This document shows positions 22,098 through 38,055 of a stretch of 64,000 nt of DNA, piece after piece. Position 1 is the stretch's first letter; each line of letters opens with the position of its first letter. The stretch is from Gomphosphaeria aponina SAG 52.96 = DSM 107014 (lineage in GTDB: Bacteria; Cyanobacteriota; Cyanobacteriia; Cyanobacteriales; Gomphosphaeriaceae), in contig JADQBC010000001.1 of assembly GCA_016903655.1 (NCBI GenBank), positions 13,371 through 77,370 on the forward strand, given 5' to 3'. The translations under genes were made by a program, and so were the position numbers. The notes under the pieces were generated by a model that had not been told where the DNA came from, searched no databases, and saw only the letters and a program-made list of their open reading frames with translations.

Positions 22098-22967
22098 ATG
22101 CCCTTAAATAGAAATTGGTTAATTTCTCTTCTCGCTTGTACAGGAATATGGACAGTAGGACTTCCTGCTGATGGACAAGCATTGATTCCCTATACTCCCC
22201 AATTAGACTCGGAGCAACTCGATGAACAAGGGCTATTCTTGCTCCAAGAGGCGATTGAATTGTTACAGTTTGGGGAATATGAACCAGCATTATCGCGAGC
22301 TAAACTAGCAACACAACTAGCTCCTCAACGTTTCCAAACCTGGTTTATTTTGGGGAACTTGTATCTTCAAGAGGAGGAAATAGAGAAAAGCATAGAGACA
22401 TTAAAACAGGCCCAGTCTCTGGCTCCTGATGAAGCACAAATAGCTTTTTCTTTGGGTAATGCTTATTTGCGGAATGGGGACTATGAAGCAGCTAAAGGCG
22501 AGTTGGAAAAAGGGTTGAGTTTAGCTCCAGATGTACCAGCAGCTTTGTTTGATTTAGGAAATGTCCACTTAATGCTGCAAGAAGAGCAAGCGGCGATCGC
22601 TGCTTATGAAAAAGCAGTTAAACTCGAGGCTAGTTTCTGGCCTGCGATTAACAATATTGGGCTGGTCAAATATGAACAGGGAGATGTAGCGGGGGCAATA
22701 GTTGAATGGGAAGCAGCATTAGAGATAGATGAGGAACAACCAGAACCCAAATTGGCGCTCGCTGTGGCTTTGTATTCTCAAGGTGACACAGAAAAGGCTT
22801 TTGATTTAGCAGCAACTGCAATGTTGAGCGATAGTCGCTATGCTGACTTAGAGTTTCTCAAAGAAAACCTCTGGGGCAGTAATTTATTAAAGGATACCCA
22901 GACTTTGCTCTCTACTCCCCAGATGCAGGCTATTATTGCTGAACTTCCGCCGCCTGTTGAGCAGTGA
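22098..22967 (+). CDS. TPR repeat protein
   Basis: 289 aa with a signal-like N-terminus and several 34-aa TPR units (AxxxLGNAYLRNGDYEAA...). Confidence 0.85.
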   Translation: MPLNRNWLISLLACTGIWTVGLPADGQALIPYTPQLDSEQLDEQGLFLLQEAIELLQFGEYEPALSRAKLATQLAPQRFQTWFILGNLYLQEEEIEKSIETLKQAQSLAPDEAQIAFSLGNAYLRNGDYEAAKGELEKGLSLAPDVPAALFDLGNVHLMLQEEQAAIAAYEKAVKLEASFWPAINNIGLVKYEQGDVAGAIVEWEAALEIDEEQPEPKLALAVALYSQGDTEKAFDLAATAMLSDSRYADLEFLKENLWGSNLLKDTQTLLSTPQMQAIIAELPPPVEQ

Positions 22968-28616: not shown

Positions 28617-28943
28617 ATGATGACCTTACCATCAGAGTTACAAAAAAGTTTTAATCAAACATTAAACGAATATGAGGAGGAAAGAAAAATGCCTTTTTTA
28701 AGCACTATGGAAAAAATGGCCATTGAAAGAGGAAAAGAAAGCGGCGCTAAAGAAAATTGTCAAAAAAACATCTGTCAAATCCTAGAAAAACGATTTGGTA
28801 AACTCAGTAAAGATTTGGTTAAGCAAATTAATCAAATTGAAGAACTTAATGTTTTAGAGCAATTGCATTTAGAAACAATTAGCGTTAATTCTGTGGCGGA
28901 TTTTCAAACTTTAATTGAACCCCATTTAAAGAGTGAAAATTAG
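28617..28943 (+). CDS. Small DUF4351-like protein
   Basis: The C-terminal half (ILEKRFGKLSKDLVKQINQIEELNVLEQLHLETISVNSVADFQTLI) resembles the DUF4351 tail of Rpn/YhgA-like proteins. From memory only. Confidence 0.4.
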   Translation: MMTLPSELQKSFNQTLNEYEEERKMPFLSTMEKMAIERGKESGAKENCQKNICQILEKRFGKLSKDLVKQINQIEELNVLEQLHLETISVNSVADFQTLIEPHLKSEN

Positions 28944-28971
28944 CTATAATCCATATCTCATTTTTGAATTT

Positions 28972-28994
28972 ACAAGGGGGCTACCGCCCCTTGT
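28972..28994. terminator. Hairpin between convergent genes
   Basis: ACAAGGGG gctaccg CCCCTTGT, between the DUF4351-like (+) and CHAT-CHASE2 (-) stops. Confidence 0.4.
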
Positions 28995-29013
28995 CTGCAT
29001 TAATTTTACTTAC

Positions 29014-31293
29014 CTACTTATAAATTAACTTTGGCGGAGCAGCAATAATGATAGTTGTTGCGCCTAATGCTAAGGCTGGGGGAATTAGGGGTATCCATCC
29101 CCCAGATATACTAAAAATTAACCAACAACTCACACCCAGTCCCCCAAAAATAATAACTTGAGCAAGAATAAAGCTCTGTGAATCGCGAATATAATAAGCA
29201 AGAATACCACCCATCATCGACCACCCTAAAATCCAAAGTAACTCAATTTGCACAGGCCACCACCAAATTGCTGGTTGAGAGTCAACCCCAACACTAATAA
29301 TTTGACTAATCATTTGTGCTTGCAAAAAAACTCCTGGTATTTCATCACCGTAGGGAGTAAGAAAATAATCATCAAATTTTTCTCCCTGAGCCGTAACCCC
29401 AATAATAACAATAGGATATTTACCACTAATTCCCTGAGTTAAAACATCTTTGAGAGAAACTGAAGCAGCAATGTCAGTAGTTTTTTCAACATAACGGTAA
29501 TTAAGTATTGTTTGGCTACCCCGAGAGTCTATTCCTTGATAACCTCCAGCGTGTTTAGTTAGTTTTGGTAGCAAATTAGAGCCAATTTTCCAGCCTTTAT
29601 CTGTCTCCTCAAAGTCTATCCCTAAATTATTGAGGTAATAAAAGGCAATTAAAGAGTTAAAAGCTAAATCAGTTTTACAAGTATCACCTGCTTGTGGAAT
29701 CATACTCATCAGATGGCGACGCACCACCCGATCCGAGTCCATTATTACATCACTAAAACCCCAAAAATCTGGGGAAATATCTTTGGGTGGTTGGGTATCC
29801 TGCCCTTGAGGAGAATTGGTTTTGCACATGACATAAAAAGGATAATTTTGGTTCAGGCGATCGCTTATTCCCTGAGCAAAATCATGTTGATGATAGATAT
29901 TCAAACCAATTACTTCTGGGTTAACTTTTGCCAACTCATCCAACAACCGACTCAAAGCTTCATCTGTTAAAGAACCCCCTGTTTTTCTCGGCCAATTTTG
30001 TTCTGTTTGATAGGCAATATCCTCATCATCAATAGTCACAACTAAAATCCGTTCATCCTGAACCATCGAAGAGTGAGAACGCCATTGCATCATAGTATCA
30101 AAAGCTGATAATTCCAACCCTTGAAGCAAACCCAAATATCTAATTATCCCCACCACTCCTGTACAAACCAAGCTAGTTAAAACCCCATTAACTAAACCCC
30201 GTTTGTTCATTGGTCCTGCCAAAAAATCCTGCCAATTTGGGGGAATCACACCAGGATTTTGGTAAATTACTGGCAATAAAGTTGCACCAGGTAATCTCTC
30301 ATTCCAGCCATCATCCTCCAGTTTTTTCCTCGCTTTTTTGACAGCAAGATATAAAGAATCACCCTTAGTAAAAAAACCCAGAAAAGACTTAAGAAACTCC
30401 TGAGCCACTAAATCTGGCACAGGTTCAGCCATCACAATAACTTCAGGAATATTTAATCTTTCCAATTCCCAAGCCAAACCCAAACCATCACAGGAGTTAA
30501 AAATTGCTATTTGCAATCCTTGATTAATCGCTTCTTCCAATCCATTTTGCACCTCTGCTACTGTCAACTTCTCAGTTTTATTAATATAAATTACCCCTTT
30601 ATCTTTTTTAGTGCTACTGTGACCAGCAAAAAAGATCATATCCCACTGTTGCTGCCACAATTTTTTACTAATTTCCCCGCGGGTTGGTTCTACCAAGAAG
30701 ACTACTTCCGCATCGGGTAACTGCTTTAAATAAAGCTGATCTTTCTTTACATCAATTCCAGTACTATCCCCAATTATAGCTAGTATTTTAACTTTCTTTT
30801 TCTTAGTCTTTACTGGTGGAGGAGCTTTGAAACAAACTGGACTAATAGCAGGATAAGCATTATTATACTCTGTAAAAAAATGCCACGAATGCCAGGGAAG
30901 CTTTCTAATATCATTGGTAGTTTTAATCAAAAAACGAACCTGATCTTCCTGGTTAAGATGAGTCCGCAATTGGTCATTAATGTCAGTAAACCCAGGAGAT
31001 TTAAGCCAATCATGGAAACTGTCTGTCAATTTCTCAAGCGAGCTACTGCACTGATCAATAATCTCATCTCCTGCATAATTAGTTGATTGTCCTGAAGGCC
31101 CACCAAGTCGAGAATTAACATTTATTTTATGATAAAATGTTCGCCAACTTTCGTGATTTTTCATAACCACTTCATTGGCGGGTAAACTTCCTGTAATTTC
31201 TAGTTTAGCTCTATGACCTTCATCACCAATTTCCAGCGTCACTTGAAAACCCAGATCACTCTCATCAATTTGTAAAACAACTAACTTATCCAT
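29014..31293 (-). CDS. Membrane protein: N-terminal CHAT (caspase-fold) protease domain + TM + periplasmic CHASE2 sensor + 3 C-terminal TM helices
   Basis: CHAT His/Cys dyad context (MIFFAGHSS ... IAIFNSCDG). CHASE2 hallmarks are present (ILVVTIDDEDI...NWP...VIGLNIY, GFSDVIMDSDRVVRRH, IVIIGVTAQ...TPYG..IPGVFLQAQMISQI). I prefer the ATG at 31293 (MDKLVVLQID), which is preceded by GAGG. Confidence 0.8.
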   Translation of the reverse strand: MDKLVVLQIDESDLGFQVTLEIGDEGHRAKLEITGSLPANEVVMKNHESWRTFYHKINVNSRLGGPSGQSTNYAGDEIIDQCSSSLEKLTDSFHDWLKSPGFTDINDQLRTHLNQEDQVRFLIKTTNDIRKLPWHSWHFFTEYNNAYPAISPVCFKAPPPVKTKKKKVKILAIIGDSTGIDVKKDQLYLKQLPDAEVVFLVEPTRGEISKKLWQQQWDMIFFAGHSSTKKDKGVIYINKTEKLTVAEVQNGLEEAINQGLQIAIFNSCDGLGLAWELERLNIPEVIVMAEPVPDLVAQEFLKSFLGFFTKGDSLYLAVKKARKKLEDDGWNERLPGATLLPVIYQNPGVIPPNWQDFLAGPMNKRGLVNGVLTSLVCTGVVGIIRYLGLLQGLELSAFDTMMQWRSHSSMVQDERILVVTIDDEDIAYQTEQNWPRKTGGSLTDEALSRLLDELAKVNPEVIGLNIYHQHDFAQGISDRLNQNYPFYVMCKTNSPQGQDTQPPKDISPDFWGFSDVIMDSDRVVRRHLMSMIPQAGDTCKTDLAFNSLIAFYYLNNLGIDFEETDKGWKIGSNLLPKLTKHAGGYQGIDSRGSQTILNYRYVEKTTDIAASVSLKDVLTQGISGKYPIVIIGVTAQGEKFDDYFLTPYGDEIPGVFLQAQMISQIISVGVDSQPAIWWWPVQIELLWILGWSMMGGILAYYIRDSQSFILAQVIIFGGLGVSCWLIFSISGGWIPLIPPALALGATTIIIAAPPKLIYK

Positions 31294-31303
31294 CTTCTTC
31301 CCC

Positions 31304-32530
31304 TCAGATAACAAAATATTCAGTGACACTAGCATTTTCTAAACTTAGATGAACACTAAATTCCTCCCCAGTGGTTCCATATAATTGTAATTGAATCCAA
31401 TTATCAGCTGCTCGAGATTCTGCTGCTAAAGGTGTTCCCGAATCATCCAGTACTGGTTTTCCTGCTTCATCAAGTATAACCAGTTTAAAATTCGGTGGCA
31501 GATAAATATTTTCTCCTCGAGGATAGGGATAAACTCGCAGACGAATATGGGTTATTTCCGAGGATTCCTGTTTAACAGAAACCACCAAAGAAACCGTCTT
31601 ACCAGCTAATCGCATCCCAAAATCAATCTCTTTTCCTCGCTTAAAAGCATCACGAAAATCCAGATCATCTTTTCTTCTCAAACGAAAACGAATTGGTTCT
31701 GGTTCTGGTTCTGGACCACCCAATAGTAATTCAACAGTTTTCCAACTTTCTTCCACAAAATGATTCATCCATTGAGTTAACCTTGTCTGCAACGCTCGTT
31801 TTCTATACATTCTTAATCTCCATGTATCATTGGCTAGTAAAGCATTCCAAATACCAGAAAATACTTGTCGTTTCGGTAAAACTAATTCTGGGTTTCCCAA
31901 CTTTGCTAATAACTTTTCTGCCTCCATTGGCGAAATTTGCTGGGGAGTTGTTATTACTCCTTTTGTCGATTGTTCTTGACAAAAATCCAAAGAAAGTAAG
32001 AGTACATTGGGGTCAAGGATTAAATCTTTCTGCTCCAGATAATAAAGGTGAAAATCCCTGTCATATACTGCTTTTTCTTGGATTTTCCTCTGGGTTGTAT
32101 ATGCCAAAATCCTCATTATTCCCACTTCTACATTGATTTGCACTGCTAGATAATAATCTCCAGCCCAACTTGGTATCTCTACCCATTCTCCAGGAATAGC
32201 CAACTCAAACTCATCAGCAGCATATTCACAATTTATCTGGGAGCAGGGAAGAATAACAATACGTTTATCATTAATAGTAATTGCACTCCCATTAACAAAT
32301 TCCCAAATACTAGGTAACTCCTCTGACTTCCAGACAGAAGCTTCTCCAGTATAATTCTCTGCCAACCAAGCTAAAATCCCTTCTAAACTCAGGCGATTTA
32401 AATAAGCTTGCCAACGATTTCCTGGACAAGAAAAAGCCTCAGTTTCTTCCCAAGCCAAATTTTGACTCTCTGGTGATATTTCTAACAAAATACCTTGTGC
32501 TATTTGATGATTGAGTTTAGTTGTGTTCAT
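31304..32530 (-). CDS. DUF1822 family protein (function unknown)
   Basis: 408 aa. The segments NRWQAYLNRLSLEGILAWL, IPGEWVEIPSWAGDYYLAVQINVE, LTQWMNHFVEESW, YLPPNFKLVILDEAG and ASVTEYFVI match my memory of the DUF1822 family consensus. Confidence 0.75.
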   Translation of the reverse strand: MNTTKLNHQIAQGILLEISPESQNLAWEETEAFSCPGNRWQAYLNRLSLEGILAWLAENYTGEASVWKSEELPSIWEFVNGSAITINDKRIVILPCSQINCEYAADEFELAIPGEWVEIPSWAGDYYLAVQINVEVGIMRILAYTTQRKIQEKAVYDRDFHLYYLEQKDLILDPNVLLLSLDFCQEQSTKGVITTPQQISPMEAEKLLAKLGNPELVLPKRQVFSGIWNALLANDTWRLRMYRKRALQTRLTQWMNHFVEESWKTVELLLGGPEPEPEPIRFRLRRKDDLDFRDAFKRGKEIDFGMRLAGKTVSLVVSVKQESSEITHIRLRVYPYPRGENIYLPPNFKLVILDEAGKPVLDDSGTPLAAESRAADNWIQLQLYGTTGEEFSVHLSLENASVTEYFVI

Positions 32531-32853
32531 TTTTTCACTTCCTTAAATGCTCTTTTTAACAAACTTGCAAAAATTTCTTTCGGTAATTGATTCAGGGCTT
32601 TTCTTCTCTCTTGAATTACCTCATCAGTTAAACAAAGATGCGGTTCTCTTTTTTGCCAAATAGGAATCAATTTTTTTATCAACATATCAATAAACTTTTC
32701 CTTGCGTCTTCTCACTTTGCACCAGCTTTTTTTGTTTCCATATATAATTTCTGCTGTTATTTCCAATGAATAATCTTGACAATAATATAAATCTAATATT
32801 TGCCAAATTTCCGTCGCAAATTCTTGTTTTCTCACACCTACTTTTCTAGCCAT
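32527..32853 (-). CDS. Small protein resembling sigma-70 region 4 (HTH)
   Basis: 108 aa. EIWQILDLYYCQDYSLEITAEIIYGNKKSWCKVRRRKEKFIDMLIKKL parallels the ECF region 4 pattern (R.V..L.Y..G.S..EIA..LG.S..TVKSRL.RAR..L). ATGA overlap with the DUF1822 start. Confidence 0.45.
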   Translation of the reverse strand: MARKVGVRKQEFATEIWQILDLYYCQDYSLEITAEIIYGNKKSWCKVRRRKEKFIDMLIKKLIPIWQKREPHLCLTDEVIQERRKALNQLPKEIFASLLKRAFKEVKK

Positions 32854-32867
32854 ATGTTGCTCATCAA

Positions 32868-33749
32868 TTAATTATAACCTTTAATTTCTCTAAAAACTTC
32901 AACAATGACTCCATATAATTCCTCTAATTCCTCCGAAAATTCCTCATTGATTAATTCTCTTTCCTTCCTCTCAGCTTCAGGGGCTGTTACTTTATTATTA
33001 AAATAACGGTAAACTATTGCGTCAATGATAGTCTGGATAATCTTGAAAATATCTTGTTCATTATATCTGGGAAAATCTCCTGGCTTTTCTTGATTGTAAG
33101 CCCTAGCTATTCTTTCCCAAACTGGATCAGCTTCACCTTGCAATGACCCGTAACCATTTTTATGAGTGGGGGCAGCAAGTTTATTAAAATATTCTCTCAC
33201 TAAAATATATTTAGGAATTTCTTCGGGGTATAAACCATATTCTTCGAGAGCTTTCTTAGTTGAGCGCATTGTTTTGCAGTTTAATAACCAAAGATCTGTG
33301 CGAAACGCTTTTGGATCACATTTTTTCCTGACATAATCTTTAAAAAATCCAACAAATTTCGTATAAGCATAACTTTTGAGAAATCCTATCTCAGGTTTAA
33401 ATTTGTTTAAAATGTTCCCGATTCTAGTTTGACAATCCTGAAAATAATCTTCCTGGGATACTCCATAACTATGGTACTTATTAGCAAAAGATTGAACTGC
33501 ATCATAACAAACTCTTCCTAAATAAGCTGTTAAGTGTTTTTGTAGTACTAAACTCTCAGGTGTTTGTTGCCATTGGACAAAAATCTGACTGGCACATTCT
33601 TCTGGAGTAGGAAGAGAAGGGAGCTGGTTTAAGTAGTACTCGATACTCTTTTTTAATTGAGAATCTTCTACCCAAACAGGAAAGTTTCCCAATACTCCCT
33701 TGTCAGGGAAAGTAGAAAATATTTGTATCAACTCTTGTCTTTCTGTCAT
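32868..33749 (-). CDS. Divergent sigma-70-like protein carrying a region-2-like segment
   Basis: 293 aa. LTAYLGRVCYDAVQSFANKY...SQEDYFQDCQTRIGNILNKFKPEIGFLKSYAYTKFVGFFKDYVRKK aligns by eye with the sigma70_r2 pattern (VYR.A.R...AEDL.QE.F.K....L..F....F..WL..IA.N...D.LRK). Confidence 0.5.
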   Translation of the reverse strand: MTERQELIQIFSTFPDKGVLGNFPVWVEDSQLKKSIEYYLNQLPSLPTPEECASQIFVQWQQTPESLVLQKHLTAYLGRVCYDAVQSFANKYHSYGVSQEDYFQDCQTRIGNILNKFKPEIGFLKSYAYTKFVGFFKDYVRKKCDPKAFRTDLWLLNCKTMRSTKKALEEYGLYPEEIPKYILVREYFNKLAAPTHKNGYGSLQGEADPVWERIARAYNQEKPGDFPRYNEQDIFKIIQTIIDAIVYRYFNNKVTAPEAERKERELINEEFSEELEELYGVIVEVFREIKGYN

Positions 33750-33766: not shown

Positions 33767-33905
33767 GATTTGAGTTTTTTGAATTATTTTAAATAATAGA
33801 TTTGAGTCAAGTTGAAAATTCTTTTTTATAAAAAATATTACAAATTTAAAATTACTACCTAACCCATCATCTAATCATAGTCCTCATCTAATCATTCATA
33901 TCACA
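33767..33905. repeat. Bipartite intergenic repeat, copy 1 (Box A 33767-33794, Box B 33860-33897)
   Basis: Box A GATTTGAGTTTTTTGAATTATTTTAAAT is 28/28 identical to 37866-37893. Box B is TAACCCATCATCTAATCATAGTCCTC. Box A starts 17 nt from the start codon of the sigma-like gene. Confidence 0.8.
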
Positions 33906-34138
33906 TTTAAGTGATATGTACAAATACAGGTAGCCTCCAGACCTAGATAGTATCCTTGAAGTCAACCTCTCTTTGGTAAAAACTCAGTACGTTTATTACT
34001 TCGTTACAAAAAGGGGTTTTTATGCAGTTTTGCACCAAAAAAATTTTTTACTTCTTTTTGTTACCCTTTTATGGTAATGGTTCTGGGTACATCAGTAAGT
34101 AGTAGGTATGGCTATAGCCCTTGGAACGAAACCCAACA

Positions 34139-37982: not shown

Positions 37983-38055
37983 TGGAGGTAAGCGGACTCG
38001 AACCGCTGACCCTCTGCGTGCAAAGCAGATGCTCTACCAACTGAGCTATACCCCC
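37983..38055 (-). tRNA. tRNA-Ala (anticodon UGC), free-standing, CCA not encoded
   Basis: The reverse complement GGGGGTATAGCTCAGTTGGTAGAGCATCTGCTTTGCACGCAGAGGGTCAGCGGTTCGAGTCCGCTTACCTCCA folds as a cloverleaf. It has the G3:U70 Ala identity pair and a CTTTGCAC anticodon loop. Confidence 0.95.

Follow-up and report, generated by a model that had tools for sequence, protein, structure and literature searches.

Introduction

The closest described relatives of the gene treated here are the EACC2-caspase proteins of Kaur, Iyer, Burroughs and Aravind (eLife 2021, PMC8195603). In the parts of that paper that deal with them, these proteins have a constant N-terminal alpha+beta domain (EACC2), a caspase fold and a variable C-terminus, which in one architecture brings in transmembrane (TM) helices and a CHASE2 domain, and their neighbours are an extracytoplasmic function (ECF) type sigma factor and a DUF1822 protein. 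The authors proposed from comparative genomics that a stimulus activates the caspase and that the ECF sigma factor provides the output; the account in those parts is purely computational and names no substrate. We analyzed a gene of this kind, which we call CHAT-CHASE2, together with its operon, in a 64,000-nt stretch of Gomphosphaeria aponina SAG 52.96 = DSM 107014 (GenBank assembly GCA_016903655.1, contig JADQBC010000001.1, positions 13,371 to 77,370 of the forward strand), referred to as the window. We found every testable defining feature of the EACC2-caspase description in it; the name EACC2 for residues 1–160 of our protein rests on the authors' own description of that domain. CHAT-CHASE2 is a predicted single-chain transmembrane receptor-protease and an ordinary member of a large family.

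A receptor outside the cell membrane and a protease inside it have also been argued for a metacaspase-CHASE2 protein of Trichodesmium erythraeum (Asplund-Samuelsson et al. 2012, PMC3501461; see also Jiang et al. 2010, PMC2853523), and a 2020 review repeated the topology argument (PMC7475262). The Trichodesmium protein has the same order of parts (an N-terminal protease of the caspase fold, a single TM helix, CHASE2 and three further TM helices), and we liken the two by architecture alone. However, it is labelled a metacaspase (Peptidase C14 / p20) and not a CHAT protein, and operon partners were not discussed there.

Canonical CHASE2 sensors (Sinorhizobium meliloti CyaD1/CyaD2/CyaK, Ser/Thr kinases, GGDEF proteins and histidine kinases) carry their output domain after the last TM helix. 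This includes cyanobacterial Ser/Thr kinases, where CHASE2 is N-terminal to the kinase, whereas in our protein nothing lies past TM4 and the enzyme sits on TM1.

A signal-activated CHAT protease is genetically linked to a sigma factor of the ECF type both in our cassette and in the type III-E Craspase system (gRAMP/Cas7-11, the TPR-CHAT protein Csx29, Csx30, Csx31 and RpoE). Craspase regulates RpoE through the cleavage of Csx30. Csx29 is the best fold match to our N-terminal module, at 9–10% sequence identity, but it is soluble, is activated by RNA-guided target binding and has no TM or CHASE2 part; DUF1822 and Csx30 have no detectable relation. A membrane CHAT protein is also tied to ECF sigma control in DdvS/DdvA of Myxococcus xanthus (PMC6061681; PDB 8rot, 8rw5), which matches our module in fold with E values of 6e-7 to 8e-7. 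The topology of DdvA is the opposite one, with an extracytoplasmic TPR-CHAT part and a cytoplasmic anti-sigma domain in one chain, while our CHAT domain is predicted to be cytoplasmic and no anti-sigma domain is recognizable.

A receptor and a protease in one chain

The 759-aa product is 100% identical to a GenBank protein from a metagenome-assembled genome of Gomphosphaeria aponina SAG 52.96, annotated as 'CHASE2 domain-containing protein'. An earlier reading of this DNA, made from the letters and open reading frames (ORFs) without database searches (the sequence-only reading), had chosen the MDKL start at 31293, and this choice was right: the start is preceded by GAGGGGAAGAAG, is 10 nt past the DUF1822 stop codon, and agrees with the M-x-KLVVL N-terminus of all CHAT-CHASE2 homologues. 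We ruled out an alternative ATG at 31335 on the strength of those homologues and because that position is inside the upstream gene.

The same reading had put a CHAT protease ahead of the first TM helix, with CHASE2 and three TM helices behind it, and this layout is upheld by Pfam, hydropathy and AlphaFold2. Nothing placed CHAT in the periplasm, the TM helices and the dyad are there, and the middle domain is CHASE2. The Pfam CHAT match (PF12770) covers residues 196–328 (E 7.3e-8, 32.6 bits against a cutoff of 24). Its His/Cys dyad is intact, with His225 in FFAGHS (nt 30619–30621) and Cys268 in AIFNSCDG (nt 30490–30492), and both motifs are invariant in alignments of 25, 62 and 109 relatives. 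The CHASE2 match (PF05226) is full-length, covering model positions 5–257 of 257 with residues 380–697 (E 9.3e-51).

Hydropathy and the AlphaFold2 model agree on helices at residues ~364–386, ~681–701, 705–730 and 737–751, and the protein ends at 759. That leaves a tail of 7–8 residues after TM4 and not the ~12 of the sequence-only reading, which was correct in placing no cytoplasmic output domain beyond the last TM helix. The three C-terminal helices serve only as an anchor, and sensor and enzyme are joined by TM1 alone.

Across 25 homologues, a sequence has on average 4.8 Lys plus Arg residues ahead of TM1, 1.36 in the loop between TM2 and TM3, 0 in the loop between TM3 and TM4 and 2.2 in the C-terminal tail. 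The 365-aa N-terminal part shows neither a signal peptide nor a TM segment. Since positive charges mark the inner side of the membrane and the N-terminal part lacks an export signal, the CHASE2 domain is predicted to face the periplasm and the EACC2+CHAT module the cytoplasm, which is the orientation that the sequence-only reading had assumed and with which hydropathy and the helices of the model agree.

The fold of the protease module

The AlphaFold2 model of the whole protein has a mean pLDDT (predicted local distance difference test) of 84.9. When we compared it with the PDB using Foldseek, the best match was Csx29, the TPR-CHAT subunit of Craspase (8eey_B, E 5e-10, 379 columns), and the other top matches (E 5e-10 to 8e-7 for the top range) were separases, a SAVED-CHAT filament and the CHAT-bearing anti-sigma factor DdvA. 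Procaspase-3 and procaspase-6 were weaker matches, lower in the list. As modelled, the CHAT module has a caspase/separase-like fold.

The sequence-only reading had described a region of ~150 aa ahead of CHAT. The region exists, though it is not a separate unit: it is part of the constant module described below, and its second half appears to lie in the CHAT fold. A profile-profile alignment to canonical TPR-CHAT proteins of related loci is colinear over residues 28–344; it is statistically weak (E 0.045) and we took it as support only. It pairs His225 with HLATHG, Cys268 with LSAC and the stretch VRFLIKT..LPWH with the typical N-terminal strand of CHAT, so that residues ~75–160 (including VRFLIKT...LPWHSW) run colinear with the N-terminal half of a canonical CHAT domain. 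Because this alignment is colinear, and because the 379 columns aligned to Csx29 are about twice the length of the Pfam CHAT match, we assign the second half of the region to the CHAT fold. In the model, residues 1–160 form a three-strand beta-meander followed by helices, and the first ~60 residues (the meander and a helix) are family-specific. After the invariant Arg62 comes a variable loop (62–73) with pLDDT below 50, the least confident stretch of the model.

Two other searches gave nothing to build on. With the receptor family profile against PDB sequences, the sole match was Thf1 (E 0.011), across the TM1 region, and we judged it to be spurious. The CHASE2 part of the model had no convincing Foldseek match in the PDB, only weak ones to NTPDase and Ppx/GppA (E ~3e-3 to 2e-2). 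HetF of Nostoc/Anabaena, which acts in heterocyst differentiation and cell division, is likewise a cyanobacterial CHAT protease. We rejected orthology to it: the sole NCBIfam match, NF045509, scored 33.7 bits against a cutoff of 1200, and the catalytic core alone aligns.

A constant protease module with exchangeable sensors

We searched residues 1–360 against 1.84 billion cluster representatives (50%-identity clusters) and obtained 2,402 matches at E <= 1e-3, of which 1,474 were at E <= 1e-30. Nearly all of them span residues 1–357 end to end and lie at the N-terminus of proteins of 430–1,750 aa. In a length-diverse sample of 62 of these proteins, CHAT was detected in all 62 (best E 4e-26), followed by C-terminal parts such as nSTAND1 (10), CHASE2 (8), AAA_16 (8) and WD40 propellers (7), among others. 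NACHT NTPases and TPR repeats also occur among the C-terminal parts of relatives.

Fusions of CHAT to CHASE2, which the sequence-only reading had suggested looking for, are common. Among the 150 best representatives, 65 have a CHASE2 module with TM helices, and the median tail past TM4 in these is 13 residues, so the lack of an output domain beyond the TM bundle is the family norm. The sequence-only reading had framed the protein as an inverted CHASE2 sensor, and this framing is wrong: what stays constant across ~2,400 clusters is the protease module, and CHASE2 is one of several sensors plugged into it. A protease module with a plug-in CHASE2 sensor is the better description.

The family has thousands of members, with several copies per genome in filamentous cyanobacteria. 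Mojavia pulchra, for example, has the paralogues P0011, P0045 and P0107, and several genomes have three or more. In some cases, DUF1822/CHAT-CHASE2(/DUF928) cassettes are paired head to head in one locus (L049, L051, L055, L064, L067 and L076). The paralogues and the paired cassettes suggest a lineage-specific expansion of the sensor.

Operon partners across related loci

The operon partners, which the sequence-only reading had missed, carry most of the functional information. We compared 78 loci (L001–L078) from species-representative genomes, all of them cyanobacterial, and the canonical gene order over this sample is sigma-like gene, DUF1822, CHAT-CHASE2, DUF928. DUF1822 is present in 74/78 loci and directly adjoins the receptor gene on its upstream side in 62/78. 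Downstream, 70 loci have enough DNA to judge, and DUF928 adjoins the receptor gene in 67 of them. In 53/78 loci there is a sigma-like gene, either as a form of ~400 aa together with a long DUF1822 (20 loci) or as a form of ~230 aa together with a short one (33 loci). A signal-peptide-like N-terminus is seen in 68 of 77 DUF928 proteins versus none of 62 DUF1822 proteins.

Relatives of the protease that lack CHASE2 help to sort the partners. There are four whose contig reaches beyond the gene on its upstream side (nSTAND1, NACHT, TPR and nSTAND1-WD40 types), and DUF1822 is directly upstream in 4/4, while none of the four has an adjacent DUF928. We conclude that DUF1822 goes with the protease module and DUF928 goes with the CHASE2 module. 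In three of the four there is a gene beyond DUF1822; one of these has a weak Sigma70_r4 match and two are without Pfam matches. The sigma-like gene usually accompanies the cytoplasmic protease module too.

For us, the most economical reading is that the CHASE2 sensor controls the CHAT protease. We would give about even chances to the fuller version, in which a periplasmic signal activates CHAT and the sigma factor is then controlled through the action of CHAT on DUF1822 or on CHAT itself. Other genes cluster with the cassette as well, namely TPR-CHAT genes near it in 26/78 loci and genes for TPS-domain exoproteins in 18/78. Two other explanations have to be weighed.

One is that the cassette is a cell-suicide or counter-invader 'conflict' system, where CHAT would degrade many proteins or start a cascade toward dormancy or death and the sigma factor would be secondary. 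Caspase-fold proteases do work this way in type III-E and III-B CRISPR systems. EACC2-caspase proteins are ranked among conflict systems in the parts of PMC8195603 that cover them, reviews depict membrane CHASE2-orthocaspases as death receptors, and the frequent TPR-CHAT neighbours and the several paralogues in many genomes, including the head-to-head duplicated cassettes, are in line with such a role. However, a PADLOC-DB 2.0 scan of the four window proteins plus DUF928 gave no matches, and the genes flanking the operon in the window look like housekeeping genes (chlB, ccs1-like) with no mobile-element or phage context seen around it. That a sigma-like gene and a dedicated cytoplasmic partner are so tightly and widely linked to the protease points instead to a specific transcriptional output, and we consider a conflict role unlikely.

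The other is that CHASE2 and the helices serve mainly as an anchor or scaffold, with CHAT regulated from the cytoplasm (for example by DUF1822) and processing membrane-proximal or exported cargo of the TPS/haemagglutinin type or DUF928, and not a sigma factor. TPS-domain exoproteins, exported TPR-CHAT proteins and DUF928 do cluster with the gene, and the CHASE2 ligand of the CHAT-CHASE2 family is not known. This arrangement has a problem of sides, though, as the CHAT active site is predicted to be cytoplasmic while DUF928 and the TPS cargo are exported. CHASE2 is also well conserved, with a mean pairwise identity of 0.53 and numerous invariant polar residues; this conservation suggests a role beyond anchoring, and soluble relatives replace CHASE2 by recognized sensor or oligomerization modules. 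We regard the anchor explanation as improbable and keep to the reading in which CHASE2 senses and CHAT responds.

The neighbouring TPR-CHAT proteins are ~880 aa long and often have signal-peptide-like N-termini (e.g. in L003, L010, L015 and L040, and at 1–5055 of L079). Their recurrence may indicate that the pathway includes a second CHAT protease, located outside the cytoplasm. Genes for ABC transporters recur in 14 loci. In L007 (2118–3806, minus strand), small ORFs with a double-glycine leader (...ETISGG followed by YEV...) and a fragment resembling a C39 bacteriocin-processing peptidase are found upstream of a cassette with a long sigma gene.

The copy in the window

The sigma-like protein is a single ORF of ~400 aa in L079, the locus closest to ours (its CHAT-CHASE2 protein is 60% identical to the window protein), and in 20 others, with region 4 at ~317–358. 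In the window it is spread over two ORFs that differ in frame and are 14 nt apart. Region 2 falls just short in Pfam (23.8 bits against a cutoff of 24) and short of TIGR02937 as well (33.8 against 42.9), and region 4 was recognized through homologues. Both pieces are annotated as separate proteins, and Logan, a collection of assembled sequencing runs, contains identical sequences. DUF1822 begins with an ATG that overlaps the stop codon of the upstream sigma-4 ORF (ATGA). We relied only on this overlap, read directly in the window, as a heuristic count of such translational coupling over all loci is skewed by which start codons are chosen.

The other departure concerns DUF928. A tblastn search of the 64-kb window (E <= 1e-3) found no DUF928, TPR-CHAT or TPS homologue near the operon and no clear one elsewhere in the window; its sole match was a weak TPR-repeat one at 22335–22625 (E 1.4e-4). 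The usual position of DUF928 is taken by a DUF4351-only ORF of 108 aa on the opposite strand (28617–29013), which suggests a rearrangement.

The split gene could have arisen by a recent frameshift, or it could encode a natural sigma factor in two pieces. One could go further and take the whole copy for a decaying or rewired remnant that no longer signals, or that signals through partners encoded elsewhere. This would explain two ORFs where 20 loci and L079 have one, and a DUF4351-only fragment where DUF928 is nearly always found. Yet the CHAT-CHASE2 and DUF1822 proteins are full-length and keep every alignment-invariant position. The two sigma halves, at 48% and 56% identity to L079, are as conserved as the other genes (56–60%), and the second half has its own ATG and keeps its ATGA coupling to DUF1822. 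The identical ORFs in Logan, which come from an independent assembly, speak for the same side. Two-polypeptide sigma factors are also known, SigO-RsoA being one. For these reasons we think it quite unlikely that the copy is a remnant.

DUF1822 and a possible mechanism

Synteny suggests that DUF1822 may be an anti-sigma factor or an adaptor. Our AlphaFold2 model of the window's DUF1822 protein (mean pLDDT 82.8) starts with an alpha/beta domain, which a linker joins to an Ig-like beta-sandwich at the C-terminus. As modelled, it is unlike a TPR protein, contrary to the label that DUF1822 carries in the relevant parts of PMC8195603. The linker (region 271–295) has pLDDT below 50 at 280–287 and is hypervariable in length, with a near-invariant Arg285. 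When the model was compared with the PDB by Foldseek, the C-terminal sandwich alone had matches (the Ig domain of Brr2 Sec63, GAE domains) and the N-terminal domain had no informative one. The family profile against PDB sequences gave chance-level CD1a matches only. One anti-sigma entry, the RsgI4 sensor domain (7cg8_A, E 1.5e-2), is among the weak matches and covers only the C-terminal sandwich. Some DUF1822 homologues have added HEAT_2 repeats (P0178, P0192, L082).

We propose that the four-part cassette would consist of an ECF-like sigma factor, its partner DUF1822, CHAT-CHASE2 as sensor and enzyme, and an exported DUF928 protein, which most relatives have. A periplasmic cue, possibly a protein and possibly involving DUF928 where it is present, would alter the packing or the oligomeric state of CHASE2. 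A protein cue such as DUF928 would fit with the S. meliloti CHASE2 cyclases, which receive a protein signal via an outer-membrane protein. TM1 would relay the change and draw CHAT domains together, and activation would then come from induced proximity or filament formation, as in caspases and SAVED-CHAT. The activated CHAT would cleave a cytoplasmic partner, for which the best candidates may be the DUF1822 linker at Arg285 and the protein's own N-terminal loop after Arg62. Cleavage would free or activate the sigma factor and so alter transcription. Functionally, this would be a one-protein equivalent of regulated anti-sigma proteolysis, and a membrane-bound analogue of Craspase-Csx30-RpoE. The cassette resembles these two systems in its possible working and is not a member of either.

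Several points weigh against this proposal. The sigma-like gene was not found in 25/78 loci, and DUF1822 has no sequence or fold similarity to known anti-sigma domains. Arg62 and Arg285 as cleavage sites are guesses from conservation beside low-confidence loops, and no single P1 preference is common to CHAT proteases. In the literature on DUF1822, DUF928, EACC2 and CHASE2 with CHAT or caspase we found only in-silico papers and no experiments. With its split sigma-like gene and without DUF928, the window copy itself may not work in the canonical way.

Features and surroundings

Table 1. Coordinates of the operon, the parts of its products and nearby elements (window positions unless a locus is named).
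Feature	Position	Strand	Basis
CHAT-CHASE2 receptor-protease gene, 759 aa	29014..31293	minus	ORF, Pfam, GenBank match
Residues 1–160, N-terminal alpha+beta part of constant module (EACC2 domain of Kaur et al.)	30814..31293	minus	alignments, AlphaFold2
Residues 165–350, CHAT caspase-fold core (predicted)	30244..30801	minus	Pfam, alignments, Foldseek
TM1, residues ~366–386, sole physical sensor-protease link	30136..30198	minus	hydropathy, AlphaFold2, charge
CHASE2 domain, residues 380–697, predicted periplasmic	29203..30156	minus	Pfam match, charge pattern
TM2–TM4 bundle, residues ~681–752 (last 7 residues and stop at 29014–29037)	29038..29253	minus	hydropathy, AlphaFold2
DUF1822 protein, 408 aa, no signal peptide	31304..32530	minus	Pfam (E 3.3e-73), AlphaFold2
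108-aa ORF, sigma region-4 helix-turn-helix and C-terminal extension	32527..32853	minus	aligns with residues 299–392 of the 399-aa L079 homologue, 56% identity
293-aa ORF, sigma region-2 part	32868..33749	minus	aligns with residues 7–284 of the L079 homologue, 48% identity
Sigma-70-like promoter consensus match TTGACT-16-AATAAT, just upstream of operon	33783..33810	minus	10/12, pattern match only
25-nt element in other loci	L002 1348, 4384; L004 2555, 4078; L006 3106, 3861; L007 2746, 3250, 3997; L014 1735, 2489		

Upstream of their long sigma genes, Nostoc loci have one to three copies of a 25-nt element (TACGAyGACTTTTAGTTTTTATGCA), with 21 strict matches versus 4–9 in shuffled sequences. The window has only TTTATGCA, half of the element, at 34019 (plus strand), in the intergenic region upstream of the operon and on the strand opposite to it. 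We considered the element as a shared sigma-dependent promoter and dropped the idea, as its orientation to the downstream genes is inconsistent and the window copy is a half on the opposite strand.

Between 23140 and 28441 the flanking genes are housekeeping-like, judging from their translations only (Ccs1/ResB-like, QueF-like, ChlB and F420-hydrogenase-beta-like). A tRNA gene at 37983–38055 (minus strand) is the single Rfam match at the gathering threshold in the window.

Significance

The architecture and the neighbourhood had already been described computationally and are not new. The value of the window locus is modest because of this and because the copy is atypical, with a split sigma-like gene and no DUF928. 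What we add is a near-universal partner, DUF928, which goes unmentioned in the parts of PMC8195603 that treat these proteins, and the division of the partners between the protease module (DUF1822) and the CHASE2 module (DUF928). We also add a non-TPR model of DUF1822 with a conserved linker Arg, and the split sigma-like gene in the genome studied here.

Caspase-fold proteases coupled to receptors have been studied in depth in animals, and CHAT proteases are known in CRISPR-associated defence. To our knowledge, no membrane receptor of bacteria has yet been demonstrated to drive a cytoplasmic CHAT protease directly. The family is large and its partners are clearly defined, which makes it a tractable system. 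Questions that could be addressed with it are how a caspase-like enzyme is activated from the periplasm, what the CHASE2 ligand is, and whether control of a sigma factor runs through proteolysis of DUF1822.

More tentatively, CHAT-CHASE2, DUF1822 and the sigma-like protein may form a new class of transmembrane sigma switch, in which DUF1822 would be a novel type of anti-sigma factor or adaptor, cut in its linker once an exported DUF928-type protein has activated the receptor-caspase across the membrane, and in which the window would have a natural two-subunit split sigma factor; we see this as possible and would lean against it at present. If it is true, the switch would be a bacterial 'death-receptor-like' caspase that serves gene regulation.

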